Part shown: positions 49,772 to 64,000 of the stretch, piece after piece
How the letters are laid out: each line of letters opens with the position of its first letter
How positions within the stretch are numbered: position 1 is the stretch's first letter
Assembly (NCBI GenBank): GCA_016125475.1
Contig: WGLR01000008.1
Coordinates: 137,723-201,722, forward strand
Reading direction: 5' to 3'
DNA: 64,000 nucleotides
Source: Betaproteobacteria bacterium
Lineage (GTDB): Bacteria > Pseudomonadota > Gammaproteobacteria > Burkholderiales > Ga0077523
The notes under the pieces: generated by a model
What the model saw: only the letters and a program-made list of their open reading frames with translations
What the model was told of the DNA's origin: nothing
Databases searched by the model: none
Made by a program: the position numbers and the translations under genes

Positions 49772-50220
49772 CACGCCACCGACCCGTTCTCTCGCTCGAT
49801 GTCCAGGTCGCGACCCGCAGCGCGAACCTGCCGTCGGCGGAAGTGCTGCGCGAATGGTGTCGTGCGGCGCTGGTGCGCGATTGCGAGGTGACCATCCGGC
49901 TCGTGGGCACGCGTGAGGGCCTCGCACTGAATTCCGCGTTCCGGGAACGAGACTATCCTACAAACGTACTCACGTTCGTGTACGAAACAAGCCCCGCGTG
50001 CGTGGGGGACATCGCAATCTGCGCGCCGGTCGTCCGCCGGGAAGCCCGAGCCCAGGGCAAGGCGCTCGAAGCCCATTGGGCACACCTCGTCGTTCACGGG
50101 ATGCTGCACCTGCAGGGATACGATCACCTCCGCGACGCGGACGCACGTCTGATGGAACAAACGGAAGCACAAATCCTCGCCGATCTCGGGTATCCTGATC
50201 CCTATGCAGTAGCGGCCTGA
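49768..50220 (+). CDS. ybeY: rRNA maturation endoribonuclease YbeY
   Basis: The HGMLHLQGYDH zinc motif is present. The GTG start overlaps the phoH-like stop. Confidence 0.92.
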   Translation: MTRHRPVLSLDVQVATRSANLPSAEVLREWCRAALVRDCEVTIRLVGTREGLALNSAFRERDYPTNVLTFVYETSPACVGDIAICAPVVRREARAQGKALEAHWAHLVVHGMLHLQGYDHLRDADARLMEQTEAQILADLGYPDPYAVAA

Positions 50221-50262
50221 CAGAGCCGCAGCGGGCCCGCCCGACGGCCCCCGATCCTTTCT

Positions 50263-51096
50263 ATGGACAGTGCCCAGACGGACAAACCTTCGTTGCTCGA
50301 AAGGCTCAGTGCCTTCCTCATGCGCGAGCCGGAGGACCGCGACCAGCTCATCCATCTGCTGCACTCCGCCTACGAACGACACATCCTGGATGCCGATGCC
50401 CTTTCGATGGTCGAAGGCGCGCTCCAGATGTCCGAATTGCAGGCGCGAGATGTCATGGTGCCTCGCGCGCAGATGGACCTGATCGACATCAGCGAACCAC
50501 CGGAACAGTTCATTCCGAAAGTGATCGAAACCGCCCACAGCCGTTTCCCGGTTATCGACGGCTCCAAGGACAAGATCATCGGGATCCTGCTCGCGAAGGA
50601 CCTGCTGCGCTACTACGCCGGCGAAGAATTCAACGTCCGGGACATGCTCCGCCCCGTCGTGTTCATCCCCGAGTCCAAGCGACTCAACGTCCTGCTCAAG
50701 GAGTTTCGCTCCGCCCGCAATCACATGGCCATCGTCGTCGATGAATACGGCGGAGCGGCGGGGCTGGTCACGATCGAGGACGTGCTCGAGCAGATCGTCG
50801 GAGACATCGAGGACGAGTACGACTTCGACGAAACAGAGGGCAACATCGTCTCCCAGCCGGGAGGGCGATACCGGGTGAAGGCGACGACGGAAATCGCGGA
50901 CTTCAACGAGGCGTTCGGGACCGGATTCTCCGACGAGGATTTCGACACGATCGGCGGCGTTGTCGTGAGCGAGTTCGGACGCGTCCCGAAGCGCGGCGAG
51001 GAAATCGCCCTGTCCGGACTGCGTTTCCGGGTCCTGCGGGCCGACAGTCGTCGCGTGCACTCCCTGCTCGTGGACAGGATCATTCCCTCCGAATGA
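50263..51096 (+). CDS. corC: CBS/CorC_HlyC-domain magnesium/cobalt efflux-associated protein
   Basis: It has a CBS pair plus a transporter-associated C-terminal domain. Length is 277 aa. Confidence 0.92.
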   Translation: MDSAQTDKPSLLERLSAFLMREPEDRDQLIHLLHSAYERHILDADALSMVEGALQMSELQARDVMVPRAQMDLIDISEPPEQFIPKVIETAHSRFPVIDGSKDKIIGILLAKDLLRYYAGEEFNVRDMLRPVVFIPESKRLNVLLKEFRSARNHMAIVVDEYGGAAGLVTIEDVLEQIVGDIEDEYDFDETEGNIVSQPGGRYRVKATTEIADFNEAFGTGFSDEDFDTIGGVVVSEFGRVPKRGEEIALSGLRFRVLRADSRRVHSLLVDRIIPSE

Positions 51097-52607
51097 TCCC
51101 GAGCGCGTGGGCGCGCGCGATCGCTGCCTTCGTCTGTGGCGCGGTAATGGTGCTCGGTTTCGCGCCGCTGCGCCTGTTCCTCGTTCCCGTTCTCGGCACG
51201 GCTTTGCTGTTCTCGCTCGTGTCGACCGAGGACCGCCCACGCAGGTCAGCCGTCACCGGGTTCGCGTTCGGACTCGGCCTCTTCGCCGCGGGTATCGGCT
51301 GGATATACGTCGCGCTGCACACGTATGGTGGCATGCCGCCCTGGCTGGCCGCGGTGTCCACGCTGGTGTTCGCCAGCTTCCTCGCGCTCTTTCCGGCGAT
51401 CGCATGCGCCGCCACCGCGTGGTTTCCACGTGAGTTGCGCTGGGCGGCTTTCGCACCACTGTGGGTACTGACGGAATGGCTGCGCAGCTGGATCTTCACG
51501 GGCTTCCCGTGGCTGTCGCTCGGTTACTCCCAGATTCCGGCCAGCCCGCTTTCCGGCCTCGCGCCACTCCTCGGCCTGTTCGGCGTCACGTACGCGGTCG
51601 TCCAGACCGGCGCCTGCCTGGTCGCCCTGTTGTCGGGACGCAGCCGGGGCGCTCCGGCCGTCGTGCTGGTCGGGATCGTCGCAGTCGCCATCGGATCGTC
51701 TGCGGTGCAGTGGACTCGCCCGGATGGCCCGGAAATCACGGTGTCCCTCGTCCAGGGTAACGTCGCACAGGACCTCAAGTTCCGCGAGGATCGCCTGATC
51801 AAGACCCTGACGTTCTACGAAGCGGCGGTTCTCGCGTCGAAGTCGCGCCTCACGATCCTCCCGGAAACCGCACTGCCACTCTTCGTCCACGAGATTCCGC
51901 CGGCTTATCTGCAGAGACTGAAGGAAAGCGCCACCTCGAGAAAGGCGGACGTGATCGTCGGTGTGTTCGAGAACGATCCCGTCGGAAGCGATCGCTACTT
52001 CAACGCCGTGATCAGTCTCGGAGACTCTCCGACACAGACCTACCGCAAGCATCACCTCGTCCCGTTCGGTGAATTCATCCCTCTGAAGACTTTCCTCGCA
52101 CCCATCATCAACGACTGGCTTCACATCCCCCTCGCCGACCAGACGCCCGGGGCGGCCCGTCAGCCGCCACTTCGGGTCGCGGGCGAGAGGATCGCGATGG
52201 ACATCTGCTACGAAGACGTGTTCGGCAGGGAAATCATTCGCTCGGCCCCCGAGGCGACGATCCTCGCGAACGTGAGCAACGATGCGTGGTACGGCCGCTC
52301 GTGGGCGGCGGAACAGCACCTCCAGATTGCCCAGATGCGCGCGCTGGAAAGCGGGCGCTGGATGCTCCGCGCCACCAACACCGGCGTGACCGCGATCATC
52401 GACGAGACCGGTCACGTCCGGAAGGTGCTGCGTCAGTTCGAGGCAGGCGTTCTCGAGGGCGTGGCGCAGGGCCGAACCGGCGAAACGCCCTACGTCAGGA
52501 CCGGCAACGCCGCCGTCGTGGTCTTGTGCACGGGGACGGTGTTCACGCTGTGGTCACGCAGGCGCCCCGGACGCCGGAATCACGACACCCGGAAACGTCA
52601 GGCCTGA
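51093..52607 (+). CDS. lnt: apolipoprotein N-acyltransferase
   Basis: It has a polytopic N-terminus and a CN-hydrolase domain (ICYEDVF). The ATG overlaps the corC stop. Confidence 0.92.
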   Translation: MIPSAWARAIAAFVCGAVMVLGFAPLRLFLVPVLGTALLFSLVSTEDRPRRSAVTGFAFGLGLFAAGIGWIYVALHTYGGMPPWLAAVSTLVFASFLALFPAIACAATAWFPRELRWAAFAPLWVLTEWLRSWIFTGFPWLSLGYSQIPASPLSGLAPLLGLFGVTYAVVQTGACLVALLSGRSRGAPAVVLVGIVAVAIGSSAVQWTRPDGPEITVSLVQGNVAQDLKFREDRLIKTLTFYEAAVLASKSRLTILPETALPLFVHEIPPAYLQRLKESATSRKADVIVGVFENDPVGSDRYFNAVISLGDSPTQTYRKHHLVPFGEFIPLKTFLAPIINDWLHIPLADQTPGAARQPPLRVAGERIAMDICYEDVFGREIIRSAPEATILANVSNDAWYGRSWAAEQHLQIAQMRALESGRWMLRATNTGVTAIIDETGHVRKVLRQFEAGVLEGVAQGRTGETPYVRTGNAAVVVLCTGTVFTLWSRRRPGRRNHDTRKRQA

Positions 52608-52832
52608 CCTGCAGCGACGGATCGGGAACGTCGCCACCCCACGGCGTTCGAGGTCCCGCCGACGTAGTCGGCAATTCGTGAGACCGTCGCGCACTCCGGG
52701 CAGGCACCTGAGGAAGTCCGTCTGAAGCTGGTCGCGGGCCCGCCGCCCTCTCGCGTGACACATCCGGCGAACCGAACGGCGATCGCGCCCCCGGCGAGCC
52801 AACCGGTCGGACCGGTCTTCCCGATCCGGATG

Positions 52833-53636
52833 TCACTGAAGCTTCTTGAGGTATTCCTTCGTGAAGATCTTGTCGGGCAGGTCGACCATCTTCATGCCGC
52901 CGTACTCCATCACCGAATGCGTATCGGCGCGAATCGCATCCGTCATGACCAGCCTGGTCGGCCGGACCCTGCCGCCGAGCGACTTGTACCCTTCGTACGA
53001 ACAGGTCTTGAGCAGGCGATCGGAGATCGAATAGAACTCGGCCTTCACCGGCGCGTCATCCGCGATCCGCACCCAGTACTTCACCTTCTGGTATGCCACG
53101 CCACGTTCGGTGGCCGAGAGTTCGAGAACGTGGCACTTTTCGCCCCCCACTGCCTCCGATCCCGTGATCCTGGGCGAGTAATCGCCGCTAAAGTTTGCCC
53201 GGGCGATGTCGCCATTAGAGACCACGCCCGTCAGGCGCTGCGCCAGGGACAACCGTACCGGTTGTGACACGTTGGGAACGAAAAGCCACAGATCACGCCC
53301 CTTCATCAGCAGTATCTGCCCTCTCTCCGAGGCGGGTGCGAGTGTCTGGACGATCGTGTTGTCGTTGCCCTTCGACCAGACACGGAGATCCCGCGTTTCC
53401 AGGCTGCCGCCGCTCTCGACCGAACGGATCTTGACGAAGACTTCGAACGCCCGTGAAGGAAAACGGATCTCGTCTGCCCGGCGAACGATGGAGACCGCCT
53501 TTTCATCGACCTCGCCGGACACCGGCTCCTCCGCGCGAACGAGCCCTCGCGGGATGCCCGCCACCGGCATGGCCAGCGCCCCGAGCAGGAGCGCTCGGCG
53601 TCTCGCGACTCCCTGTTCGGAAAGATGAAAACGCAT
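52833..53636 (-). CDS. LolA-fold 'outer membrane lipoprotein-sorting protein'-like periplasmic protein
   Basis: 267 aa. The N-terminus ARRRALLLGALAMPVAG...VRA resembles a Tat signal. The body matches the LolA_like family pattern (...LLMKGRDLWLFVPNVSQPVRLS...NFSGDY...YWV...). It is divergent from the ABC operon. Confidence 0.78.
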   Translation of the reverse strand: MRFHLSEQGVARRRALLLGALAMPVAGIPRGLVRAEEPVSGEVDEKAVSIVRRADEIRFPSRAFEVFVKIRSVESGGSLETRDLRVWSKGNDNTIVQTLAPASERGQILLMKGRDLWLFVPNVSQPVRLSLAQRLTGVVSNGDIARANFSGDYSPRITGSEAVGGEKCHVLELSATERGVAYQKVKYWVRIADDAPVKAEFYSISDRLLKTCSYEGYKSLGGRVRPTRLVMTDAIRADTHSVMEYGGMKMVDLPDKIFTKEYLKKLQ

Positions 53637-53706
53637 TTCGGAACTCCTCGTTTTTGGGCAATCATCACCTTATCATAATGCCCTGATCGAACTAGGGACA
53701 CACCGC

Positions 53707-54462
53707 ATGTCGATTGTAGTTCTGGAGCACGTCACCAAGGAGTACCGGCTTGGAGAACACATGGTTCGCGCGCTCGATGACGTATCGCTGTCGATCGAAA
53801 GCGGCGTGTTCCTTGCCATCGCAGGCCCGTCCGGCAGTGGCAAGTCCACCATTCTCAACATCATCGGCTGCATCGACACGCCTTCGAGCGGAAAGGTCCA
53901 CGTCGCGGGGCACGATGTCAGCGGCCAGAACCCCGACCAGCTGGCAAGCCTGCGGGCTCGCACGATCGGGTTCATCTTTCAGACCTTCAATCTTCTCCCG
54001 GTCCTCACGGCGGCCGAGAACGTCGAGTATCCGCTGCTCCAGATGGAGGAACTCGACAGGGAGGACCGGAAGGAACGGGTCCAGGAGATGCTCGAACTCG
54101 TACAGCTCTCCAAGTACGCGAAACATCGTCCGAACCAGCTGAGCGGCGGACAGCGCCAGCGGGTAGCGATTGCCAGGGCGCTCGTGACGAAGCCGGACAT
54201 CGTGCTGGCCGACGAGCCCACCGCGAACCTGGACCACAAGACGGGCGAGGGGATACTGGCGCTCATGCGCGAGATCAATCGAAAGTTGCGGACTACGTTC
54301 ATCTTTTCTACCCACGACAAGAAGGTCATCGACGCCGCTGACCGCCTGATCGGGGTGGAGGATGGTACCGTCAGGCTGCTCGGCGTTCGCAAGGAAGGGC
54401 AGTGGGCCATCACGAACGTTGCGCGCAAGGCGCCTGCCGCGCAGGCGCAGGGCAAACCATGA
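53707..54462 (+). CDS. ABC transporter ATP-binding protein (LolD/MacB-type)
   Basis: Walker A GPSGSGKST, the signature LSGGQRQRVAIARAL, Walker B ILADEPT and an H-loop (STHD) are present. It has a C-terminal tail of about 25 aa. Confidence 0.93.
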   Translation: MSIVVLEHVTKEYRLGEHMVRALDDVSLSIESGVFLAIAGPSGSGKSTILNIIGCIDTPSSGKVHVAGHDVSGQNPDQLASLRARTIGFIFQTFNLLPVLTAAENVEYPLLQMEELDREDRKERVQEMLELVQLSKYAKHRPNQLSGGQRQRVAIARALVTKPDIVLADEPTANLDHKTGEGILALMREINRKLRTTFIFSTHDKKVIDAADRLIGVEDGTVRLLGVRKEGQWAITNVARKAPAAQAQGKP

Positions 54463-55946
54463 GGACCGGAATGGACACGCACGATCGTCTCGGACTGCTA
54501 TCTTTCTGGCTCGCCGCGAGCCTGCTTCCCTGGCTGGGGTCGGTGCCCACCGCCCACGCAGTGGACACGATCGTGGTGGCCGAAGGCGATGCACCGGACG
54601 CGTCATCCCGGGGGGACACCGAACCGGCGGAACCGGATTTCACGCTCCCGCCGCTCGACAGCGCGAGCACCGGTCAGCCGAGTGACGTCACCGGCTTGCC
54701 CGATGTCCTGGGGGGTGAGCAGCAAGGTCTGCGCTTGGTGGGCTTCGCCCAGCAGACCACGGCTTACACGTATGCGGATCCGGGCCACTGGTCGACTGCG
54801 GTCTTTCGCGCCCAGGTAGGTTCGTCCGGACGAATCGGCCCGAACCTGAAATGGCACGCGTCGGTGCGCGGCGAGTTCGATCCCGTCTACGCCTGGACCG
54901 ATTACTACCCCGACAATGTCCGGCGAGACCAGCGTGTCTACGGACTGATCGGGGAGACGTACATCGACACCAGCCTCAAGGGATGGGACCTCCGGCTCGG
55001 GCGTCAGAATGTCGTATGGGGAGAGATGGTGGGCCTCTTCTTCGCGGACGTCGTGACCGCGAAGGATCTGCGGGAGTTCATACTTCCGTCGTTCGACGTC
55101 ATCCGGATCCCGCAGTGGGCCGCACGCGGGGAATACTTCTGGGGGGACTCGCACGTCGAGCTTCTGTGGATTCCCTATACCAGTTTCGACCGGATCGGAA
55201 AGCCCGGAGCCGAGTTCTACCCGTTTCAGGTGCCGGCACCCCCTGGATTCGTCAACAGATTCCAGGACGATCAGATACCTGCGCGCAGCGTCAGCAACTC
55301 CAACGTGGGGGCACGCTTCACCACCCTGCAGAACGGCTGGGATCTGTCGGCGTTCTTCTACAAGAGCATGGACAGTTCGGCCACCTTCTATCGGGAAGTC
55401 ATCCCGACAGGACCAGCCTCCGGCACGATTCTCTACACGCCGCGACACGACCGCATCTGGCAGACCGGAGGCACCGTTTCGAAGGACGCGTCCACGGCAG
55501 ACATCGTGAAGGCGGAACTCGTCTTCACGTCGGGACGCAGCTTCAACGTGACCCGTCTGGGCGACGCCGACGGGGTCGTCGCGAAGGACACGATCGACTA
55601 TGCCATCGGCGTCGATCACACCCTCCCGGAAGACGCAAAGCTGAACGTCCAGTTCTTCCAGCGTGTCTATTTCAATCATGACCCGGACATGCTCCAGGAC
55701 CAGTTCGAGAGCGGTTTCACCGTTCGTTACAAGCGTCCGCTGCGACCGAAGCTCGATGCCGTGATTCTCTGGATCCAGAGCATCAACCGCTGGGAGAACC
55801 TCGTACGCCCACGCATCACGTGGGACGCCGGACACAACCTGCACATCGCCTTCGGAATCGACATCTTCAACGGGCCGGTGACGGGTTTCCTGGGTCGGTT
55901 CCGTGACCGGGACCGCATCTATGTGGAATCCCGGTATGACTTCTGA
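54459..55946 (+). CDS. predicted outer-membrane beta-barrel protein (DUF1302-like by motif)
   Basis: The ATG overlaps the ATPase stop (ATGA). It has a signal peptide ending AHA|VD and alternating aromatic/polar strands. An LRLGRQNVVWGE motif is present and the C-terminus is ...ESRYDF. Confidence 0.7.
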   Translation: MRTGMDTHDRLGLLSFWLAASLLPWLGSVPTAHAVDTIVVAEGDAPDASSRGDTEPAEPDFTLPPLDSASTGQPSDVTGLPDVLGGEQQGLRLVGFAQQTTAYTYADPGHWSTAVFRAQVGSSGRIGPNLKWHASVRGEFDPVYAWTDYYPDNVRRDQRVYGLIGETYIDTSLKGWDLRLGRQNVVWGEMVGLFFADVVTAKDLREFILPSFDVIRIPQWAARGEYFWGDSHVELLWIPYTSFDRIGKPGAEFYPFQVPAPPGFVNRFQDDQIPARSVSNSNVGARFTTLQNGWDLSAFFYKSMDSSATFYREVIPTGPASGTILYTPRHDRIWQTGGTVSKDASTADIVKAELVFTSGRSFNVTRLGDADGVVAKDTIDYAIGVDHTLPEDAKLNVQFFQRVYFNHDPDMLQDQFESGFTVRYKRPLRPKLDAVILWIQSINRWENLVRPRITWDAGHNLHIAFGIDIFNGPVTGFLGRFRDRDRIYVESRYDF

Positions 55947-56047
55947 GCCTGCACGACTGACATGATGTGGCTGCACCATGCTCGAGTGACGGAACGCCGG
56001 TCCGGCCATCGCCGTTTCGTGCGGGTAGAGACGACGACGGTGTCCGC

Positions 56048-57328
56048 ATGAGTCGGTTACGGGAGAGGCTCCAGGACTGGTTCGACGAGTGGAAGAAGAC
56101 CGCCCGACTGGATTACTGGCTCGCGCTGCGCAGCGTCACCAGACAGGGACGCCGCTCGGCCATCGGGCTCGTGGCGATTGCCGCAGGCGTCGTGTCGATG
56201 TTGCTGGCCGCCGGATTCTTCGAGTGGAACTACAACGGTCAGCGCGAGGCCACGATCCGATCGCGGATCGGCCACATCGAGGTCGTGCGGAAGGGTTACA
56301 TGGATGCCGGTGCGGCCGATCCCTTCGGTTACCTGATCCCGGAACACTCGCCGGCGCGAAAGCTGATCGAGACGTTTCCGCAAGTGGACACACTCGCCCC
56401 GCGATTGTCCTTCAACGGGTTGATCAGCCTCGGTGAATCCACGATTTCCTTTCTCGGAGAAGGCGTGGACCCCGACAGGGAGAAGAAGCTCAGCGGCGCC
56501 CTGACGATACTGCAGGGTCAGAATCTTTCGTCGTCCGACGCGAAGGAAGTCATTCTCGGACAGGGGCTCGCCCAGACTCTCGGCGCGAAGGTCGGGCAGA
56601 ACGTGGTGCTCCTCACGAACACCAAGTCACGGGGCATCGGTGCAGTCGAGGTACGAGTGGCCGGAATATTCTCCACGGTCACCAAGGCCTACGACGACTA
56701 CGCACTGCGGTTGCCGCTCAGGACTGCCCAGCAGTTGCTGAAGACCGACGGCGTGCACATGTGGCTCGTGCTTCTGCACGAGACCAGCCAGACGGATTCC
56801 ACGCTGGAGAAGATGCGGGAGAAGGTCGGAGACGACTCTCTGCAGTTCGTACCCTGGTACGACACCGCGGCCGCCGATCTCTACAACAAGACGGTCGAAC
56901 TCTTCTCCCGTCAGGTCTTCGTCGTGAAAGTCATGATCGCGATCATCATCATCCTGAGCATCACCAACACGATGACGACGGCAGTCCGCGAGCGGACTGC
57001 CGAGATCGGCACCTGCATGGCGCTGGGCGACACCCGCCGGACGGTGATGAGGCGGTTCCTGGCAGAAGGCGTGGTCATGGGACTCGCCGGATGCATCGTG
57101 GGGGTCATCGCAGGCCTCATCCTCGCGAGGGTGATCACGGCGATCGGCATTCCCATGCCGCCGCCACCGGGGATGGCGCAAGGCTATATCGCCGGAATTC
57201 TCGTCACGCCCCGACTCGTTTTCGATGCCGTGGTGCTGTCGGTCGTGACGGCGTTCATAGCCGGCCTCTATCCGGCATGGAAGGCCTCGAGACTGGAGAT
57301 CGTGGATGCCCTCAGGCACGCGCGCTAG
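56048..57328 (+). CDS. FtsX/MacB-type ABC permease 1 (LolC/E-like topology)
   Basis: TM1 is followed by a periplasmic domain of about 230 aa, then three TM segments of an FtsX domain (ERTAEIGTCMALGDTRR...). Length is 426 aa. Confidence 0.88.
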   Translation: MSRLRERLQDWFDEWKKTARLDYWLALRSVTRQGRRSAIGLVAIAAGVVSMLLAAGFFEWNYNGQREATIRSRIGHIEVVRKGYMDAGAADPFGYLIPEHSPARKLIETFPQVDTLAPRLSFNGLISLGESTISFLGEGVDPDREKKLSGALTILQGQNLSSSDAKEVILGQGLAQTLGAKVGQNVVLLTNTKSRGIGAVEVRVAGIFSTVTKAYDDYALRLPLRTAQQLLKTDGVHMWLVLLHETSQTDSTLEKMREKVGDDSLQFVPWYDTAAADLYNKTVELFSRQVFVVKVMIAIIIILSITNTMTTAVRERTAEIGTCMALGDTRRTVMRRFLAEGVVMGLAGCIVGVIAGLILARVITAIGIPMPPPPGMAQGYIAGILVTPRLVFDAVVLSVVTAFIAGLYPAWKASRLEIVDALRHAR

Positions 57329-58574
57329 ACGACCCAAGCGAACGTCGCTGCCCTGGACGACGACGTTCGCTCTGGCCATCAAGAACGTCCTGCGGCAGAA
57401 GGGGCGAACCGCTTCCATCGTCGCGGCGGTCGTCGCGGGCACCGCAGGCCTCATTCTGAGTCAGGGATTCATCCGGGACGTCTTCGTGCAACTGGCCGAA
57501 GCAATCGTCCACTCGCAGTCCGGGCACATCCAGCTGGCAAAGGGCGGGTATTACACCTACGGGGTGCACCAGCCGGACAAGTTCCTGGTTTCGGACCCGG
57601 AAGGCGACAAGGCACGCATCGCGTCCCTGCCAGAGGTGGAGGATGTCATGGCGAGGCTCGGTTTTTCGGGCCTGCTCAGCAATGGCCGGGCCGATCTCGC
57701 GGTACTGGGCGAAGGAATCGAGCCGGACAAGGAGGCCAAGCTCAGCAGCTTCATGAGAATCGCGGAAGGAAGGCGCCTGAGGTCCGATGACCGGTACTCG
57801 GCGCTCGTGGGCAAGGGGGTAGCGGACGCACTCAGGCTCCACATCGGAGACCGCGTGGTGCTGATGGTGACCACCTCGGACGGTGCAATGAACACGGCCG
57901 ACCTCGAGATCGTCGGCATCTTCCAGACATTTTCCAAGGACTACGACAACCGGGCGGTGAAGATGCCCCTGAGTGTCGCGCAGGAACTCATCAACACGAA
58001 CAGCGCGAACACGCTGGTCATCTCGCTCAAGCACACGTCGGACACGCAACGCATCGCGGCATTGTTGCGGGAACGCACGGTTTGGCGCGACCAGGAAGTG
58101 CGCACGTGGGACCAGCTGAACGACTTCTATCCGAAAACCGTCGAAATGTACAAGAAGCAGTTCGGGGGGTTGCGCCTGATCATACTGCTGATGGTTCTGC
58201 TGGGCGTGGTCAATGCCGTCAATTCATCCGTGTTCGAGCGAACCGCCGAGTTCGGAACGCTTCGGGCACTGGGCAACAAGGGACGGCACATTCTTCGGCT
58301 CGTGATGGTGGAATCGTTCATCATCGGTGCGACCGGCGTGACGCTCGGCATCGGGGTCGGCGCCGCAGGCGCCTACCTGATCTCGAAGATCGGCATCCCG
58401 ATGCCGCCTCCACCGAATGCCGATCTGCCGTACACCGCATACATTCGCTTCTCCTGGGATGCGGCCTGGACGGCGGCCGCGATCTGCCTGAGCGCCACCG
58501 TGCTCGCGGCCATCATCCCTGCGATCCGTGTGGCGCGGATTCAGATCGCACACGCCTTGCGTCAGGCGATCTGA
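57306..58574 (+). CDS. FtsX/MacB-type ABC permease 2 (LolC/E-like topology)
   Basis: It is a paralogue of permease 1 with the same topology (ERTAEFGTLRALGNKGR...). It overlaps the upstream gene by 23 nt. Confidence 0.88.
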   Translation: MPSGTRARRPKRTSLPWTTTFALAIKNVLRQKGRTASIVAAVVAGTAGLILSQGFIRDVFVQLAEAIVHSQSGHIQLAKGGYYTYGVHQPDKFLVSDPEGDKARIASLPEVEDVMARLGFSGLLSNGRADLAVLGEGIEPDKEAKLSSFMRIAEGRRLRSDDRYSALVGKGVADALRLHIGDRVVLMVTTSDGAMNTADLEIVGIFQTFSKDYDNRAVKMPLSVAQELINTNSANTLVISLKHTSDTQRIAALLRERTVWRDQEVRTWDQLNDFYPKTVEMYKKQFGGLRLIILLMVLLGVVNAVNSSVFERTAEFGTLRALGNKGRHILRLVMVESFIIGATGVTLGIGVGAAGAYLISKIGIPMPPPPNADLPYTAYIRFSWDAAWTAAAICLSATVLAAIIPAIRVARIQIAHALRQAI

Positions 58575-58719
58575 CTGGCCATCGCAGACCCGACACGATC
58601 TCCGGCGTGATCGCCCGGATCTCGAAGCGATGCGTGCAGCACCGGAGCCGACCGACGTTCCGTCTCGGTTGCAGGGCGCGCATCCCCGAGTGCGCGACGC
58701 ACTCGCATTCATGGCTCTC

Positions 58720-58747
58720 ACAGCCCGCGGGGCTGTCCTTTCTTTCC
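58720..58747 (+). terminator. probable terminator of the ABC operon
   Basis: ACAGCCC-gcg-GGGCTGT forms a 7-bp stem, followed by CCTTTCTTTCC. It lies about 145 nt after the permease 2 stop. Confidence 0.5.
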
Positions 58748-59115
58748 GTGCGGGTCGATTGCCGTTCAGAGCCCTTCGTGACGAACGTGGAGGCACCACG
58801 CACTCTAGCTGGCCCGGTCATCTCTCGGGGCGTCACGGGTTTCAGCTGGTGCCGGCGATCCCGATCAGGGGGCAGGAGACCAAACGACCGCAGGGCAGAC
58901 ATCCCCCGGCCACGGACAACGCCACGACGGACGCTCGGGCGGACAAAGCTGAAGCCGGTGTCTTCGACCAGCGGGTTCGTGCCCCTTCCGGAATACCCCC
59001 GGAAGCGAGACGTTCCAGGCCAGGATCGACGACCCGGTTCACGCCGGAAACGTTGGACCCCCGGCCAGCGACGCAGGAGTGATGCCGGCCGGAGGCTGGC
59101 CGGCAGGGCCAGACG

Positions 59116-59147
59116 AAAAAAAAGCCCGCTCGAATGAGCGGGCTTTT
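59116..59147 (-). terminator. strong (bidirectional) rho-independent terminator downstream of the PEP-CTERM gene
   Basis: A8-AGCCCGCTC-gaat-GAGCGGGCT-TTTT forms a 9-bp stem. The T-run is long on the minus strand and shorter on the plus strand. Confidence 0.85.
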
Positions 59148-59200
59148 CAGCTTTGATAACCGGGCGCGTTGGTCAACCCAATTGTTGTGGAACTCGAGAC

Positions 59201-60124
59201 TCAGGCCTTGCGGCTGCGGCGACGGGCGAAGGCACCAGCCGCGAACAGGGCGAGACCCGTCAGGGCGATGCCCGCAGGTTCCGGAGTCGTCAGACGGAAC
59301 TGACCGTTGTTCGAAATCACGAACCGGCCCGTGCCGTCGGCACCGGTACAGGGGCTGCCGGGAACCGCGCCAGCAACTTCACCGGGCAGACAGTTCGTGA
59401 ACGGAAGCTGCATGCCCGCGTTGATCGAGGGCGACTCACCCACGACTTCGGTGAGCACAGTGGTCGTCGGGTTCACCACACGCGAGGCGTTCGTCGTCGC
59501 GAAGCCGAACAGGTTGCCACCGACGTTCGCGGACAGGTCGTTGCCGAGGCTGTCGAAGAAGTAGCCGGCGGCCAGGAACGTCGCCTGGGCGGAGATGGTC
59601 TGCTGACCGTTCGGGATACCCGTCGGATCGATGTTGCCGCCACCGGTCACCGGCGAGAACGTTCCGATCAGGATGCCGTTGTTGGCACCGTACATCGAAC
59701 CGGCCGTGACCGTACCGAAGTCCTGGGAACCAGCCTGGGCGTAGACATTGATGGAACCGGCGGTGTAGGCGACTGAGCCACCCAGCGTCCCGGCACCGGT
59801 AAGATCGAACACGGCCGTGACTTCACCGGTCAGGTTGAAGTTCGAGCTGATGAGACCCGACTGGTCGACCAGGCGCCCGGAACCGTCCGCACCGGTGATC
59901 TGGACCGCGCCGACTTCGTTGAACGAGAAGTTGCCGGCGGCCGGAGTCGTGGTCGACACGTAGCTGGGACCGACCAGATCCAGAAATTCGGCAACCGACG
60001 TACGCTGATTGTTGAAACCCGTACCGTACGGGTTGAGGGACCAGTTGGTCAGGAAATAGGCAGAAGCGTGTCCGCTTGCCAACGATCCGGCCACCGCCGC
60101 TGCAACCAAAACTTTCTTCAACAT
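59201..60124 (-). CDS. PEP-CTERM sorting-domain secreted protein
   Basis: It has a signal peptide (MLKKVLVAAAVAGSLASGHASA) and a G/T/N/S-rich body. The C-terminus TPEPAGIALTGLALFAAGAFARRRSRKA is a PEP motif plus TM plus basic tail. A strong AGGAGG RBS precedes the ATG. Confidence 0.88.
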   Translation of the reverse strand: MLKKVLVAAAVAGSLASGHASAYFLTNWSLNPYGTGFNNQRTSVAEFLDLVGPSYVSTTTPAAGNFSFNEVGAVQITGADGSGRLVDQSGLISSNFNLTGEVTAVFDLTGAGTLGGSVAYTAGSINVYAQAGSQDFGTVTAGSMYGANNGILIGTFSPVTGGGNIDPTGIPNGQQTISAQATFLAAGYFFDSLGNDLSANVGGNLFGFATTNASRVVNPTTTVLTEVVGESPSINAGMQLPFTNCLPGEVAGAVPGSPCTGADGTGRFVISNNGQFRLTTPEPAGIALTGLALFAAGAFARRRSRKA

Positions 60125-60177
60125 CGTAAGCCTCCTAATGGCTGGGAAATGATGCGATCAACGCGCACCCTTCTATT

Positions 60178-60193
60178 AGCAAAGCACGGGCCA
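60178..60193 (-). promoter_or_regulatory. sigma54 (-24/-12) promoter of the PEP-CTERM gene
   Basis: The minus strand reads TGGCCCgtgctTTGCT, with correct GG-N10-GC spacing. It lies about 55 nt upstream of the ATG. An AT-rich tract (60195-60235) sits upstream of it. Confidence 0.6.
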
Positions 60194-60322
60194 ACAAATT
60201 AAGGGACTGTTTTATATACGATAAAAGCAGAGGAAACCGGCTGCCGAGGAGGTTCCAGGGGCCCCCTGTAAAGCGCGTCGACAGAGGGCTGCACCGTTCC
60301 ATACGGGGCGCCGGCACGGTGG

Positions 60323-61993
60323 TCAGCGGAATCCGTACTTCCCCGGCGCCAGGACGCCGTCGGGATCGATTGCCCGCCTGATCCTCGACATCATTTCGAA
60401 GAACTCCGGATTCTTCTCCGAAAGGGTGGTCATCCCTGCCGTACTCACTCGGTAGGACTGGTACCCGGCATCCGCGGTCTTCCTCGAAAGGCTCCCGTAC
60501 AGCGCGGCGGCCCTGTCGCACTGCACAGGGTCATCCTTCAGAAAGAAGATCGCGGTGAGAACGATCATGGATCGGGGGTTCTGGATCAGCAGGGCCACGT
60601 AGAAGTCGAAATCGAACGCCTTGAATTCGGCCTCGCAGAGATCGACCATGAATCGAACGTGGCTACCCGTCATCGGCACGATGGGAGCGAACCAGATCAG
60701 CCCGCAGCCATCCCGGTCCGGATGGGCATCCCGGGGCTTGGGGAGCGGGGATTTGAAATAGGCGTGGCGAACGAAGTAGTCGCTCGGCACACCCTTCAAC
60801 ACGTCGTGAATCTCGGGGGCGGCGGCGAGCATCTCCGGCGACTTCCCGCTCGCAGCCCTCACGGCCCAGTCCACGGGACCTCGCCACAGCGGATTCTGCC
60901 GCCACACGAGAAGACGCCGGACGAGTCCGATCGTGCGGTCGTCCACGAATACCAGTCGCCCGAGCGGGGCAAGCCGACGTCTGAGTTCCCGCTTCGCGGC
61001 GCGCACGAAAGCACGCCTGCCCTGAAGACCGCCACCGAAACTCCAGCGGGCGATCCCGAAGTGTGCCCGCATCGGGGCAAGTTCCTCCTCGGGCAGCCGG
61101 GAAAACCTGCGAAGCTGGTCGGGCGTGTACTGCGACATCACCGCCAGCGAAACGACGTCGTTGATGAGGTGCACTGCGCTCGTCACGACGCCGGTCAGCG
61201 CGAGGTCCCGGATGATGTCCACCAGTTCGGGCAGCGTTTCCGGTCGCGCCAGGTCGAACGTGAACGACACGAACGCTTCCGGTCTGGGCATGAGCCACAC
61301 GCCGGCCTTCACGACGATCCCGAGGCTCGACTGGCTGAACAGGCCCTCGGCGTAGGGTCCGACACCCCACTTGTGGGTGTGCCATGTCTTGCATCCCGGC
61401 ACCCCGCCACCCGTTCTCACGATTTCACCGGTCGGAAGGACGACCTCGAGACCACAGAGCGTCGCGAAGTGATCCGCGTAGTGCGTCGTTCCCAACCCCC
61501 GGTCCAGTGCGTTACCGATCACGCTGCCTTGCGGTGTCCCGTCGGTGCAGTCGCACCAGAGCTCCGGATGCTTCGCCTCCAGATGATTGCGAAGCTGCCG
61601 ATAGGTCACACCAGGCTCGACCACCGCGTAGGCGAGTTCGTCGTTCACCTCGAGGATACGATCCATTCTTTCGAGAACGACGACGACGGACCCCCCGACC
61701 ACGGGAGTCGCCGACCCGTAACCCCAGTTTCGCCCGCGGCTGCACGGCCACAGCGGTATCCCGTACCGCCGCGCGATGCCGACGACCGCGGCGACCTCCT
61801 CGGCGGTCGATGGATATACTACGGCAGAGGGCCGCCGGGACTGCGGCAGGGTCGATCTGGACAGCACGTCGACGTCGCCTGGAAGCGATTTCACATGTTC
61901 GACACCGAGAACGTCCTGCAGCGCCTCCACGGCGGCAGACAGGACCTCGCCGGAGATCGACGCCTCTGCCTTTTCCCAATCGATATCGAGCAC
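60323..61993 (-). CDS. FAD-linked oxidase, vanillyl-alcohol oxidase / p-cresol methylhydroxylase (VAO/PCMH) family
   Basis: It has a PCMH-type FAD-binding domain (PSAVVYPSTAEEVAAVVGIARRYGIPLWPCSRGRNWGYGSATP). Length is 556 aa with a GTG start. Confidence 0.85.
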   Translation of the reverse strand: MLDIDWEKAEASISGEVLSAAVEALQDVLGVEHVKSLPGDVDVLSRSTLPQSRRPSAVVYPSTAEEVAAVVGIARRYGIPLWPCSRGRNWGYGSATPVVGGSVVVVLERMDRILEVNDELAYAVVEPGVTYRQLRNHLEAKHPELWCDCTDGTPQGSVIGNALDRGLGTTHYADHFATLCGLEVVLPTGEIVRTGGGVPGCKTWHTHKWGVGPYAEGLFSQSSLGIVVKAGVWLMPRPEAFVSFTFDLARPETLPELVDIIRDLALTGVVTSAVHLINDVVSLAVMSQYTPDQLRRFSRLPEEELAPMRAHFGIARWSFGGGLQGRRAFVRAAKRELRRRLAPLGRLVFVDDRTIGLVRRLLVWRQNPLWRGPVDWAVRAASGKSPEMLAAAPEIHDVLKGVPSDYFVRHAYFKSPLPKPRDAHPDRDGCGLIWFAPIVPMTGSHVRFMVDLCEAEFKAFDFDFYVALLIQNPRSMIVLTAIFFLKDDPVQCDRAAALYGSLSRKTADAGYQSYRVSTAGMTTLSEKNPEFFEMMSRIRRAIDPDGVLAPGKYGFR

Positions 61994-62245
61994 CAGTCTC
62001 TGTCTCCCCTACGGATTTCCGAACCTTGAACGACCTGCTTCCAGCGACCACGTTCCTACCGCAGAAATCGACGGGTGCGGGGTTGCCGCCGTCATGCGAC
62101 ACTTCCGACGGGTGTCGCGCGCAGATACTCGCCCCCGGTGGCACGGGACCTCGATCGAATCACGGAAGCGCATCCATTTTCGAGAGTATGCACCAGAGGA
62201 TGAGCAGCTGCCGCCGCTCCGGACGCTCCGGCAAGTGAGAGTCCC

Positions 62246-64000
62246 ATGAGCGTCAGCCCCACCATCGCCGACACCCTGCCAGGGCTCCTGGCGTACCGGC
62301 AGCGACAGAGCCCCGACCTGCCGGCATACCGCGAATGGACGGGCCCCGGCGTCACGGGCGACACCTGGACCTGGGGCCGGTTCGGCTCCGCGGTCTCCCT
62401 GCTGGCAGCGCGGATGGCAGGCGCCGGCCTCCGGCCAGGCGATCGTCTCGGAATCCTTTCTCCCACCAGCATGAGGTGGGAACTGGTTCAGATGGCGGCC
62501 CTCGCGTGCGGCGCCTCGGTGGTGGGCCTTGACCCGCATCATCCGGCCGAGACGGTGACCAGATTGATCGAAAACACGGAAACCAGGTGGCTCGCCGTCG
62601 ATCGCGAGGAAAGGATTGCCGGCATCGGCGCGCGCGCACTCGGTGCGCTGGAGGGCGTCGTGCTGCTCGCAGGCGACACCACCCGGACCTGGCCCGCCCC
62701 AACCGTTCGCGTCGAGGAAATCGTGGCACGGCCCCATGACAGTTCGGGCCCGGCGACGCCAGGCATCGAGAACCATTCCAGGCCGGACGGCGCGGCACTC
62801 GTGACGTTTTCCTCGGGTACCACGGGAACGCCCAAGCCGATCGAATACACGCACGCGCAGGTGCTCCATGCGGTGCAGTGCATCGTCGAAAGCTTTCCCC
62901 GCCTCGCTTCTCCGGCACAGTTGCTCTGCTGGCTACCGCTCGCAAACCTGTTTCAGCGCATGATCGACTTCTGCGCGATGGCGCGAGGGGATTGCAGCTG
63001 GATGGTGGGTGATCCCCGGGCAGTGATGGATGCAGTCAGGGATGCAGATCCGCATCTGTTCGTCGGCGTGCCCCGTTTCTTCGAGCGCGTTCATGCCGGT
63101 GCTTCGGAGCGAATCGCGCAACTGCCGGGACCGGCAGGATGGTTCACTCGCCGTTGCGTCGCGAAGATCGTCGGAAAGGCGCACCGTCGCCGGCTCGCCG
63201 GCCAGACGTCCCCGAGGAACACCTGGATCGAGAATGCCGTGGCCAGTCGGCTTCGCGAGCTCTTCGGGCGGAACATCCAGTATCTGGTCAGTGGGTCCGC
63301 CCCGCTCGCTCCCGCGATTCACGATTTTTTCGACGCGATCGGCATTCCCGTTTACGAGGCGTATGGCGTCAGCGAAAACGTCGTCCCGATCGCGCTCAAC
63401 CGCCCAGGCGCGCGACGCCCCGGCTCCGTGGGGCGGCCGGTGTCGCGCAACGAGGTGAGCCTCTCCGCGGAAGGGGAGATCATGGTGCGGGGACCCGGCG
63501 TCTTTTCCGGCTATCTGGGCACGGAAGGCACGGCACCGAAACCCGACGCATCGGGTTACTGGGCCACCGGGGATCTCGGCGCTTTCGACGACGACGGGTA
63601 TCTGTACGTCAAGGGACGCAAGTCGGACGAATTCAAGCTGTCGACCGGCCGGTGGGTCTCGCCTCCGGCGATCGAGCGTCATCTGGCCGGCCTGCATTTC
63701 GTGGATCACGCCGTGATCGGGGGCGAATCCCGCAAGGCGGTGATCGCGTTGCTGGTACTTTCCGGAGACCACGATTGGTCGCGCACGTCCCGGAGCGACA
63801 TGGAACGGCAGCTGGCGCAGTCCCTGCGGGAACTCGCAGGGGACTTGCCCTCCTATCAGGTCCCGGCAGGTATCCTTCTCAGACGCGAGCCGCTTTCCAT
63901 TGCGGATGGCGAACTGACCACGAACCTGAAGGTACGTCGAAGGGCGATCTGGGACAGGCACCAGGCCGACACGGATGCACTCTATGACCGAATCGACAAG
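62246..64000 (+). CDS. AMP-dependent long-chain acyl-CoA synthetase/ligase (3' end beyond window)
   Basis: It is absent from the ORF track because it has no stop in the window. I translated it manually from ATG 62246, and the frame stays open for 585 codons to the edge. Motifs include TFSSGTTGTPKP, YGVSEN, GDLGAFDDDGYLYVKGRKSDEFKLSTGRWV and TTNLKVRRR. Confidence 0.88.
   Translation, partial: MSVSPTIADTLPGLLAYRQRQSPDLPAYREWTGPGVTGDTWTWGRFGSAVSLLAARMAGAGLRPGDRLGILSPTSMRWELVQMAALACGASVVGLDPHHPAETVTRLIENTETRWLAVDREERIAGIGARALGALEGVVLLAGDTTRTWPAPTVRVEEIVARPHDSSGPATPGIENHSRPDGAALVTFSSGTTGTPKPIEYTHAQVLHAVQCIVESFPRLASPAQLLCWLPLANLFQRMIDFCAMARGDCSWMVGDPRAVMDAVRDADPHLFVGVPRFFERVHAGASERIAQLPGPAGWFTRRCVAKIVGKAHRRRLAGQTSPRNTWIENAVASRLRELFGRNIQYLVSGSAPLAPAIHDFFDAIGIPVYEAYGVSENVVPIALNRPGARRPGSVGRPVSRNEVSLSAEGEIMVRGPGVFSGYLGTEGTAPKPDASGYWATGDLGAFDDDGYLYVKGRKSDEFKLSTGRWVSPPAIERHLAGLHFVDHAVIGGESRKAVIALLVLSGDHDWSRTSRSDMERQLAQSLRELAGDLPSYQVPAGILLRREPLSIADGELTTNLKVRRRAIWDRHQADTDALYDRIDK

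Follow-up and report, generated by a model that had tools for sequence, protein, structure and literature searches.

Five adjacent genes in a 64,000-nucleotide stretch of DNA (the window) are co-inherited and encode an accessory transport route that has no experimental characterisation in the searchable literature. We put at roughly one half the probability that this route is an accessory, adaptor-less trans-envelope export system on the Lol plan, which serves an XrtA/PEP-CTERM exopolysaccharide/floc system and moves an amphipathic lipid. An initial annotation had described a Lol look-alike with one component per envelope compartment, i.e., an ABC extractor organised as a LolC/LolE-like heterodimer, a soluble LolA-fold protein and an operon-encoded outer-membrane barrel. 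All five genes lie where it had placed them and the architecture was confirmed. It knew of no characterised system of such composition, and the searchable literature yielded no experimentally characterised one. The module consists of the following features.

52833..53636, minus strand: carrier, a soluble periplasmic LolA-superfamily protein of 267 aa with PF17131 and PDB 3BUU matches
53637..53706, no strand: divergent intergenic region of 70 bp separating the carrier gene from the ATPase-barrel operon, presumably a bidirectional promoter
53707..54462, plus strand: ABC ATPase of type VII (LolD/MacB/DevA-like), 251 aa, ABC_tran E 1.4e-35
54459..55946, plus strand: outer-membrane beta-barrel of a divergent DUF1302 subfamily, 495 aa, with signal peptide, disordered periplasmic linker of ~55 aa and ~18 strands
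56048..57328, plus strand: permease P1, MacB_PCD + FtsX, with one TM, a periplasmic domain and three TMs
57306..58574, plus strand: permease P2, a P1 paralogue, MacB_PCD + FtsX, overlapping P1 by 23 bp

Conservation of the module

Related loci in other genomes were collected by a search anchored on the barrel in a collection of 185,579 species. At least 599 stretches matched and at least 580 were confirmed as relatives; this count is a lower bound, and the confirmed relatives are a small minority of the collection. The 80 related loci described below are the best 80 of these at least 580 relatives and are almost all betaproteobacterial. Among the 46 of them with ample flanks, an ATPase homologue is present in 45, a carrier homologue in 44, the permease pair within 10 kb in 38 and the complete set of barrel, ATPase, carrier and permease pair in 37, although these counts come from closest relatives (mostly MAGs of Rhodocyclales, Nitrosomonadales and Burkholderiales) and are not phylogenetically independent. 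The five-gene set occurs far more than chance would allow, because dozens of further genomes have these genes together. The initial annotation had reckoned with the case that the LolA-like and barrel genes are not co-conserved with the ABC genes; across genomes, they are.

The gene order around the module differs widely among related loci, while the linkage within the module persists. The carrier and ATPase genes are divergent in 65 of the best 80 loci, and P1 is directly followed by P2 in all 38 pairs. Two overlaps in the window, that of the barrel ATG with the ATPase stop codon (as ATGA) and that of P1 with P2, are signs of an operon and count in favour of the preferred explanation. The triad of carrier, ATPase and barrel is linked more tightly than the permease pair in the related loci, which counts against it. 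Two look-ups were anchored on the permeases and read from independent Pfam annotation. In one, a locus with intact flanks (L089) contains the full set, i.e., P1-P2, DUF1302, ABC_tran and PF17131, together with FeeM and ThiF. In the other, an Accumulibacter contig (L087) contains P1-P2, FeeM and ThiF and stops just past P2.

The cluster had also been described as lying immediately downstream of lnt. This is physically true, but the carrier gene and lnt are convergent, and among the best 80 loci their adjacency is retained only in L004 and L005, besides the window. The adjacency is incidental and lineage-specific, and the implied functional tie to lnt and lipoprotein maturation is not supported for these reasons.

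Properties of the five proteins

The carrier matches PF17131 LolA_like with 156.7 bits (cut-off 30) and aligns over residues 47-267 with PDB 3BUU, the 'LolA superfamily protein NE2245' of Nitrosomonas europaea (E 7.8e-77), of which it is a close, orthologue-level relative. Its N-terminus is a hydrophobic, Tat-like signal with an RRR motif, in which no lipobox was found; Tat-type signals are frequent in the carrier family. The barrel has a signal peptide ending in AHA and the C-terminus ...RYDF. Its AlphaFold2 model, whose pLDDT exceeds 90 over residues 90-495, is an antiparallel barrel, and its closest fold in the PDB is that of the 18-strand AlgE (E 1e-11, TM about 0.5). PF06980 DUF1302 is matched by all 45 aligned members of the barrel family. 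NCBIfam holds no model that names the carrier or the barrel. Both proteins were correctly read at first sight, the former as a divergently encoded soluble LolA-fold periplasmic protein, the latter as a signal-peptide-bearing beta-barrel ending in F.

The inner-membrane part likewise agrees with the initial annotation, which had proposed a cytoplasmic ABC ATPase and two paralogous FtsX/MacB-type permeases in a LolC+LolE-like layout. The translated ATPase contains Walker A, signature, Walker B and H-loop motifs, and its profile scores are 231 bits for LolD, 220 for MacB and 219 for DevA, each under its own equivalog cut-off. In P1 and P2 alike, one TM is followed by ~230 periplasmic residues and then by three TMs. 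The AlphaFold2 model of P1 (pLDDT 88.8) has LolE and LolC as top PDB matches (TM 0.66-0.71). P1 and P2 sequences each form a monophyletic clade, and their duplication is independent of the one that gave LolC and LolE. Where LolC has the Hook that recruits LolA, the corresponding hairpin is six residues shorter than in LolC; this counts against the preferred explanation, and docking of the carrier on the permease stays a proposal because of it. As had been claimed, there is no HlyD/MFP adaptor gene: tblastn found no MacA/HlyD-type gene in the 64-kb window or in the best 80 related loci.

Genomic context

The region 3′ of the module in the window contains the following features.

59119..59148, no strand: strong GC-rich hairpin between A and T runs, probable bidirectional terminator for the ABC operon and for the PEP-CTERM gene convergent with it
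59201..60124, minus strand: PEP-CTERM protein resembling flocculation protein PepA (NCBIfam floc_PepA, PEP-CTERM domain)
60179..60193, minus strand: sigma-54-type -24/-12 element TGGCCCGTGCTTTGC, ~55 bp upstream of the PEP-CTERM gene
60323..61993, minus strand: FAD_binding_4 oxidase, a recurrent module neighbour
62246..64000, plus strand: FadD11-like fatty acid AMP ligase, truncated at the end of the window (tblastn 62273-64000, 38% identity to family 24)

The hairpin also gives sub-threshold Leu_leader-like Rfam matches on both strands. The PEP-CTERM protein, which ends in TPEP...RRRSRKA, scores 72 bits against floc_PepA (cut-off 80) and 18 bits against the PEP-CTERM domain (cut-off 16), and homologues of its gene occupy the same position in two related loci (L073 and L021). 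The element TGGCCCGTGCTTTGC has one mismatch compared to the sigma-54 consensus; as the number of such matches window-wide is not above chance, its position alone gives it meaning. Neither a sigma-54 motif nor a match to the sigma-70 consensus is present in the carrier/ATPase intergenic region of the window. In the corresponding region of the 65 divergent loci among the best 80, a sigma-54-like match occurs in seven, each time with two mismatches. The absence of a sigma-54/PrsR-type promoter before the core operon counts against the preferred explanation. Homologues of the FAD_binding_4 oxidase lie within 10 kb of the module in 19 of the best 80 loci. The representative of family 24 scores 264 bits against FadD11. 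In related loci, the gene after the FadD11-like ligase encodes a NAD_binding_4 thioester reductase.

The XrtA/PEP-CTERM exopolysaccharide locus is the conserved setting of the module, a point that the initial annotation had missed. XrtA hallmarks or PEP-CTERM ORFs are found in 43 of the 52 loci among the best 80 that span 15 kb or more, the hallmarks above NCBIfam cut-offs being PrsT, TIGR03007, TIGR03027, TIGR03018, TIGR03016, TIGR03015 and PrsR. Genes for N-acyl amino acid synthases (TIGR03694, FeeM) lie within 10 kb of the module in 44 of the best 80 loci, at a median gap of 79 bp from a core gene. They are the immediate neighbour in 27 of the 80, the commonest annotated neighbour class and, among enzyme genes, the most tightly linked to the module. 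These synthases narrow the question of the cargo, which the initial annotation had left open. Two observations count against the preferred explanation, i.e., the absence of a synthase gene within 10 kb in 20 of the 52 large loci and within the entire 64-kb window, where only the PEP-CTERM gene, the FAD oxidase and the fatty-acid AMP ligase lie beside the module.

Proposed export route and alternatives

The type VII ABC systems characterised so far (LolCDE, MacB, HrtBA, BceAB, FtsEX) are all known to act outward or in mechanotransmission, and none as an importer. We infer that the five proteins form one outward pathway, in which the ABC extractor would hand a lipid to the soluble LolA-superfamily carrier, the carrier would bring it to the DUF1302-type barrel, and the barrel would put it into the outer membrane or free it at the surface. 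The module probably serves to bring a lipid-like product to the cell surface, because in related loci it lies inside a PEP-CTERM/exosortase floc locus beside N-acyl amino acid synthase genes. Long-chain N-acyl amino acids are the most likely cargo.

Lipid-linked PEP-CTERM proteins are a less likely cargo for the same machine. XrtA would cleave PEP-CTERM proteins and attach them to a lipid-like acceptor that might come from N-acyl amino acids, and the module would extract the C-terminally lipidated products, chaperone them and expose them at the surface, as Lol does for N-terminally lipidated proteins. Substrates of archaeosortases carry a C-terminal lipid modification. The embedding in XrtA/PEP-CTERM loci, the PEP-CTERM genes that are immediate neighbours in eight of the best 80 loci and in the window, and a permease fold nearest to the lipoprotein extractor LolE/LolC all suit this idea, and both the acceptor nucleophile and the outer-membrane route were left open by Haft et al. 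(2006; PMC1569441). Nevertheless, lipidation of PEP-CTERM proteins is without any evidence, N-acylated amino acids other than those of Lys or Orn offer no free alpha-amine as acceptor, and the 18-strand AlgE/Occ-like barrel is narrow for folded proteins; a protein cargo is unlikely. Similarly doubtful is an AmeABCD-like role in efflux of or tolerance to hydrophobic compounds (solvents, terpenes, surfactants). In that case, the position in exopolysaccharide loci would stem from co-regulation or from chance ancestry, and not from a chemistry common to the substrates. AmeA/AmeB, a DUF1302 barrel and a LolA-superfamily periplasmic protein that confer monoterpene tolerance (PMC6394551), are homologous in kind to the outer module, and some exporters of drugs and toxins are MacB-type ABC proteins. 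However, the linkage to XrtA and N-acyl amino acid synthases survives many rearrangements, catabolic or solvent-response genes are not recurrent nearby, and an MFP or TolC-type duct is missing.

It is quite improbable that the genes are neighbours without a common pathway, the carrier and barrel being a pair for uptake or assembly at the outer membrane and the ABC proteins serving something else. The permease pair is often several kb away from the triad, in either orientation, and the shortened Hook equivalent fits as well; yet the ATPase, useless without permeases, is the part coupled most tightly to the barrel (by the ATGA overlap in the window and in 45/46 loci), the permease pair stays within 10 kb in 38/46, and other permease types do not recur at related loci. 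Divergent housekeeping LolA/LolCDE orthologues are hardly conceivable. LolD and LolC/E are the top-scoring named families for the ATPase and permeases, and the cluster adjoins lnt in this genome, but the LolCE model TIGR02212 gives 128 and 90 bits (cut-off 362) and the LolD model TIGR02211 gives 231 (cut-off 308). With every LolC/E/D equivalog score far under its cut-off and a separate permease duplication, this identity was rejected, and the look-alike status of the initial annotation holds. Moreover, an E. coli LolA query finds no match in the window or the best 80 loci, the NCBI pipeline labels are 'FtsX-like permease family protein' and 'outer membrane lipoprotein-sorting protein' rather than Lol, and the rarity of the relatives, the almost exclusively betaproteobacterial nature of the best 80 and the restricted lnt adjacency are unlike a housekeeping set.

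Comparison with known systems

Like E. coli LolABCDE, the module has a LolD-like ATPase (44% identical to E. coli LolD), two paralogous 4-TM permeases with periplasmic domains, of which P1 superposes best on LolE and LolC, and a soluble LolA-superfamily protein, and lacks a membrane-fusion protein. It differs in its non-orthology, in a PF17131 carrier, often with a Tat-type signal, instead of a LolA family member, in an 18-strand barrel instead of the lipoprotein LolB, in the shortened Hook, and in being accessory, patchily distributed and located in an exopolysaccharide locus. With MacAB-TolC and DevBCA, it shares the ABC superfamily (MacB_PCD + FtsX permease, MacB/DevA-like ATPase). However, the missing MFP gene, the separate ATPase and permease polypeptides, the two different permeases, and a soluble carrier with a porin-like barrel in place of a TolC duct set it apart, which bears out the earlier statement that this is not such a tripartite pump. 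The XrtA/PEP-CTERM system shares its genomic neighbourhood in most related loci, and its TIGR03694 'exosortase system-associated acyltransferase' is often the immediate neighbour of the module, but its description contains no ABC, carrier or barrel genes (Haft et al., 2006; PMC1569441).

The pairing of a barrel with a LolA-superfamily protein has a parallel in the DUF1302/DUF1329 pair of AmeABCD-type RND systems, which the initial annotation did not mention. In AmeABCD of Castellaniella defragrans, DUF1302 and DUF1329 (LolA superfamily) proteins work with an inner-membrane exporter (PMC6394551), and cofitness links the pair to an RND protein in the DUF1302/DUF1329/BNR/RND clusters of Shewanella and Pseudomonas (bioRxiv 10.1101/072470); export of hydrophobic or envelope compounds was proposed for such clusters (PMC6394551; bioRxiv 10.1101/072470). 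A DUF1302-DUF1329 complex reached an AlphaFold-Multimer ipTM of 0.84 (PMC13499233). The outer module is of one kind and is encoded with an inner-membrane exporter in both cases, whereas our module has a heterodimeric type VII ABC engine instead of HAE3 RND, no BNR/Ycf48-like protein, a PF17131 instead of a DUF1329 carrier, a shorter, divergent DUF1302 barrel, and an XrtA/PEP-CTERM context instead of catabolic islands. Borrelia BBJ23-BBJ29, likewise known from an in-silico proposal (2026) without experimental characterisation, would extract a non-polar ligand for transfer to the outer membrane (PMC13078400). In this unrelated phylum, the barrel is of the Omp85 family, the permease is homodimeric, extra chaperone-like proteins are present, and neither PEP-CTERM genes nor N-acyl amino acid synthases form part of the context. 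The closest known systems are AmeABCD, with the same outer module and an RND engine, and this Borrelia proposal.

The five-gene module

Five genes of the window form a real and conserved module, for which a concrete cargo hypothesis can now be given. All five, proposed in the initial annotation as a look-alike of the Lol pathway, were recovered by ORF listing and domain scans. They are as follows (window positions).

52833-53636, minus strand: carrier, 267 aa, PF17131 LolA_like (domain scan)
53707-54462, plus strand: ABC ATPase, with Walker A, signature, Walker B and H-loop motifs intact
54459-55946, plus strand: barrel, with a signal peptide, a disordered linker of ~55 residues and C-terminal RYDF
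56048-57328, plus strand: permease P1, MacB_PCD and FtsX (domain scan, TM layout)
57306-58574, plus strand: permease P2, MacB_PCD and FtsX (domain scan, TM layout)

The carrier and ATPase genes are divergent with a gap of 70 bp, and the ATPase stop codon overlaps the barrel ATG in the sequence ATGA. Product names given by the NCBI pipeline are 'FtsX-like permease family protein', 'outer membrane lipoprotein-sorting protein' and 'hypothetical protein'.

The carrier and the barrel

The carrier matches PF17131 over the whole profile length with 156.7 bits (Pfam cut-off 30), and its residues 47-267 match PDB 3BUU at E 7.8e-77. This Nitrosomonas europaea protein, entered by structural genomics as 'LolA superfamily protein NE2245', is a solved close relative on which the assignment of a LolA-type fold rests, and the crystal structure of an orthologous carrier is already at hand to build on. 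P. aeruginosa LolA (PDB 2W7Q) matches the carrier at E 0.53 only, and tblastn with E. coli LolA gave no match in the 64 kb of the window, nor in any of 80 related loci. The carrier has a hydrophobic N-terminal segment without a lipobox. Of 120 homologues, 43 have RR within their first 25 residues, and a lipobox is seen in none of them. These N-terminal sequences suggest that the carrier may be exported in folded form via Tat, as opposed to the Sec-exported LolA. The twin-arginine motifs of the homologues are of the RRxFL type, and several other homologues look N-terminally truncated, as by gene calling.

Since the barrel sequence had no match in a sequence search of the PDB, structure prediction was needed. 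The AF2 model (mean pLDDT 80.6, above 90 from residue 90 onward) is an all-antiparallel barrel, with the 18-strand alginate exporter AlgE as the top Foldseek match (E 1e-11, TM ~0.5), followed by general porins and Occ channels. The model and its matches describe an outer-membrane barrel of ~18 strands that resembles the AlgE/Occ channels, and a LolA-superfamily carrier is encoded next to it. The published fold and top structural matches of DUF1302 are the same (PMC13499233). Against PF06980 (DUF1302), the window barrel scores 19.3 bits, with a Pfam gathering cut-off of 23.2. The search for homologues returned more than 2,100 at E <= 1e-3, and all 45 that were aligned match PF06980 at E <= 0.01 (best E 6.5e-16); the domain is also precomputed on most database homologues. 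Judged from these profile matches, the barrel probably represents a divergent DUF1302 subfamily. Its C-terminal residue is F in 113 and Y in 7 of 120 homologues. An additional N-terminal periplasmic FimV_N Ig-like domain is found in 11 of the 45 aligned homologues (e.g., residues 30-134 of homologue P0045), and at this position the window barrel carries its acidic, proline-rich disordered linker.

Conservation within the barrel family (alignment A1) peaks at LGRQNxVWGEMVGLFFADVV[ST]A, residues ~179-201 (window ~54993-55061). This stretch falls in a long region, ~184-218, that is modelled with little regular secondary structure and at lower confidence (pLDDT 57-76), and it may form a loop folded inwards, or a plug, that defines function.

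The permeases and the ATPase compared with housekeeping Lol

Each permease consists of one TM segment, ~230 periplasmic residues and three TM segments, and the LolC/E feature of two paralogous permeases with one TM, a periplasmic Sabre/Porter domain and three TM is thus present. Domains of the type VII ABC (MacB/FtsX) superfamily score above gathering (FtsX 69 and 64 bits, MacB_PCD 62 and 59, ABC_tran 123). For the P1 model (pLDDT 88.8), the best superpositions are those with LolE and LolC (E 1e-26, TM 0.66-0.71), ahead of MacB, which makes its shape Lol-like; the permease fold matches comprise LolE, LolC, MacB, HrtB and YbbP. Where the LolC Hook aligns, at <25% identity, each of the two permeases has a hairpin that is 6 residues shorter than the Hook and ~6 longer than that of MacB. 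The Hook hairpin of one Lol permease recruits LolA.

That the module is simply housekeeping Lol is unlikely. LolD and LolC/E are the top named families for the ATPase and the permeases, yet all scores stay far under the NCBIfam equivalog cut-offs. The ATPase reaches 231 bits against LolD (TIGR02211, cut-off 307.75), barely over MacB (220) and DevA (219). Against LolCE (TIGR02212, cut-off 362), P1 and P2 score 128.5 and 89.6 bits, and against the LolC- and LolE-specific models 48-89 bits (cut-offs 473 for LolC, 540 and 439 for LolE). When 89 permeases of the related loci were placed in a neighbour-joining tree with three outgroups (E. coli LolC, LolE and MacB), P1 and P2 came out as two monophyletic clades that join each other before LolC and LolE, which with these outgroups argues for an independent duplication and not for orthology to LolC and LolE. 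P1 and P2 are adjacent in that order in 38 of 38 pairs. Besides, canonical Lol uses the LolA carrier and the lipoprotein receptor LolB, whereas the module has a PF17131 carrier and an outer-membrane barrel. Finally, housekeeping Lol is expected to be universal in Proteobacteria, whereas barrel relatives (at least 580) were found in a small minority of 185,579 species. The model scores and the tree thus bear out the distinction from housekeeping Lol made in the initial annotation.

Conservation of the module

A scan with the barrel alignment of one genome per species, covering 185,579 species, matched at least 599 stretches, at least 580 of which were confirmed as relatives. The best 80 of these relatives were analysed together with flanks of up to 10 kb, genes being called by ORF clustering in GC-rich DNA. 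They are nearly all from Betaproteobacteria, mostly MAGs of Rhodocyclales, Nitrosomonadales and Burkholderiales, and the isolates among them include Nitrosomonas halophila Nm1 and Propionivibrio soli. Among these loci, which as nearest relatives are not phylogenetically independent, 46 have ample flanks; the ATPase is present in 45 of them, the carrier in 44, the permease pair in 38 and the complete set in 37. The divergent triad of carrier, ATPase and barrel is nearly invariant (65/80 loci), and the permease pair shifts position within ~10 kb, in either orientation. Two look-ups anchored on the permeases made use of independent, precomputed Pfam annotation: one locus with intact flanks (L089) shows the same set, and in the other (L087) the contig ends just past P2. 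The parts are thus kept together in related genomes, and that the five genes are unrelated neighbours is unlikely.

Genomic context in related loci

All ORFs of the loci were clustered and representatives annotated. The module normally sits inside the exopolysaccharide locus of the PEP-CTERM system with the exosortase XrtA. PrsT, the TIGR03007 chain-length determinant, the TIGR03027 exporter, the TIGR03018 kinase, the TIGR03016 outer-membrane protein, the TIGR03015 ATPase and PrsR were all found above NCBIfam cut-offs, and XrtA hallmarks or ORFs with a PEP-CTERM motif occur in 43 of the 52 loci of at least 15 kb.

The tightest enzymatic partners of the module are N-acyl amino acid synthases. 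One family matches TIGR03694, 'PEP-CTERM/exosortase system-associated acyltransferase', with 198 bits (cut-off 112), and two more match PF21926 FeeM (E 6e-49 and 4e-44). A synthase lies within 10 kb in 44/80 loci, with a median gap to a core gene of 79 bp, and is the immediate neighbour in 27 loci, which ranks it top among the annotated classes. A link between N-acyl amino acid synthases and PEP-CTERM was reported by Craig, Cherry and Brady (2011), as related in PMC4897644 and PMC11072679; a transport route or function for these PEP-CTERM-linked synthases was not found described in the papers covered.

One of the two FeeM families has a C-terminal PilZ-like region, read from the sequence as a candidate fusion (L026, L031, L033, L036, L039, L043, L044, L056, L057, L072 and L073); Pfam matched FeeM and GNAT only. 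If real, this fusion would hint at c-di-GMP control of N-acyl amino acid synthesis beside the transporter.

Further genes that recur nearby encode a ThiF-like E1 enzyme (PRK08223, 396 bits), an Acg/Rv1355c-like nitroreductase, a FAD_binding_4 oxidase, a FadD11-like AMP ligase with a NAD_binding_4 thioester reductase, a GMC oxidoreductase and an MGT-type glycosyltransferase. The trio of FeeM-type synthase, ThiF-like E1 (PRK08223) and Acg/Rv1355c-like nitroreductase recurs, e.g., in related loci L008, L017, L025, L046 and L056 and in both permease-anchored look-ups (L087 3563-7676, L089 4771-7380); parts like these three occur fused in the NCBIfam models PRK14851 and PRK14852. Next to the module, the FAD_binding_4 oxidase, the FadD11-like AMP ligase, the NAD_binding_4 thioester reductase and a PP-loop-like protein recur as a small block (L031, L051, L062, L064, L073); in L073, the AMP ligase is followed by a thioester reductase and a FeeM synthase.

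Surroundings of the module in the window

Three associated genes are found in the window, together with a hairpin and a sigma-54-type element.

59119-59148, in the gap where the ABC operon and the PEP-CTERM gene converge: hairpin with a GC-rich stem of 13 bp, bordered by runs of A and T
59201-60124, minus strand: PepA-like PEP-CTERM gene, the sole one adjacent to the module
60179-60193, minus strand: sigma-54-type -24/-12 element TGGCCCGTGCTTTGC, one mismatch from consensus
60323-61993, minus strand: FAD_binding_4 oxidase, a recurrent neighbour
62246-64000, plus strand: FadD11-like AMP ligase, a recurrent neighbour, cut by the window end

Synthase, exosortase and EPS genes were not found in the 64-kb window, and of the recurring four-gene block it shows only the oxidase and the AMP ligase before its end. 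Some 55 bp separate the sigma-54-type element from the start codon of the PepA-like gene, and the element fits the RpoN-dependent PEP-CTERM genes known from the literature. Control of the core operon by sigma-54 and PrsR was considered and rejected: the 70-bp divergent region has no motif, only the PEP-CTERM gene having the element, and a sigma-54-like match in the divergent region occurs in 7/65 loci, each time with two mismatches. The hairpin is likely a bidirectional terminator. Rfam gave no match at gathering score in 51000-64000, the sub-threshold Leu_leader-like ones all falling on this hairpin, on both strands.

To the left of the module lies the housekeeping block miaB-phoH(ybeZ)-ybeY-corC-lnt (47355-52607, plus strand), and corC and lnt also adjoin the module in its two closest syntenic relatives (L004 and L005). 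The initial annotation had drawn attention to the position next to lnt. As the carrier gene and lnt are convergent, and adjoin each other only in the window and these two loci, their adjacency is treated as incidental.

Proposed function and alternative explanations

From the parts, their folds and their linkage, we infer a relay, its direction and its cargo. The permeases have the fold of the lipoprotein extractor and the carrier that of the LolA superfamily. All characterised type VII ABC systems are known to act outward or by mechanotransmission. The most economical reading of the module would be a relay across three compartments, in which P1-P2 and the ATPase would pass an amphipathic lipid to the carrier and the carrier would deliver it to the barrel. 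The neighbouring genes point to long-chain N-acyl amino acids, or to derivatives of these, as the best candidates for this cargo. For the outer half of such a relay there are precedents, as DUF1302 barrels have already been paired with periplasmic proteins of the LolA superfamily and an inner-membrane exporter (PMC6394551; bioRxiv 10.1101/072470). Cofitness in Shewanella and Pseudomonas joins DUF1302, DUF1329, a BNR protein and an RND protein, for which export of an envelope component has been proposed (bioRxiv 10.1101/072470), and AlphaFold-Multimer predicts a DUF1302-DUF1329 complex (PMC13499233).

The cargo could also be PEP-CTERM proteins after exosortase processing, for which Haft et al. 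(PMC1569441) leave both the acceptor and the route across the outer membrane open. An extended version makes the module the outer arm of PEP-CTERM/exosortase sorting: lipids derived from N-acyl amino acids, made by the adjacent synthases with the ThiF-like and nitroreductase-like enzymes, would serve as the acceptor to which exosortase transfers PEP-CTERM proteins, and these proteins, then lipidated at the C-terminus, would cross the periplasm by the Lol-like route and become exposed via the DUF1302-type barrel. We regard this as quite improbable; if true, it would amount to a new class of bacterial lipoproteins with its own dedicated trafficking route. Alternatively, the module could be a general efflux system for hydrophobic compounds like AmeABCD, the deletion of which lowers monoterpene tolerance (PMC6394551). 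AmeABCD-type cassettes combine an HAE3 RND engine with a BNR/Ycf48-like periplasmic protein, neither of which was found among the annotated neighbours in the window or the loci, whereas the engine of the module is an ABC transporter.

Among the questions that become directly testable are how material of the XrtA system reaches or crosses the outer membrane, and how the widespread DUF1302 barrels and PF17131/DUF1329 LolA-like proteins work. Since the hosts (relatives of Accumulibacter, Propionivibrio, Nitrosomonas and Dechloromonas) drive floc and granule formation in wastewater treatment, a role of the module in surface lipids or flocculation would matter in practice.

Comparison with known systems

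MacAB-TolC and DevBCA pumps have an adjacent gene for an HlyD-family adaptor, whereas none was found beside the module. E. coli MacA, the sole membrane-fusion protein used as tblastn query, gave no match in the 64-kb window or the 80 related loci, and the recurrent neighbours that were annotated (~30 of the families that occur in at least three loci) include no such protein, in agreement with the absence of an adaptor gene noted initially. The module itself and its links to XrtA and to N-acyl amino acid synthases were not found described in the literature searched. A conceptually similar arrangement has been proposed in silico for Borrelia clusters, which combine a MacB-like ABC transporter with a LolA-like protein and an Omp85 barrel (PMC13078400), and the outer module of barrel and carrier is already known from RND systems. 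The module is therefore a variant and not a wholly new kind. It would also mean that an outer unit of barrel and carrier can work with two unrelated kinds of inner-membrane engine, either RND or type VII ABC, which suggests that diderm bacteria have a general, modular lipid-export route running alongside Lol, Lpt and Mla.
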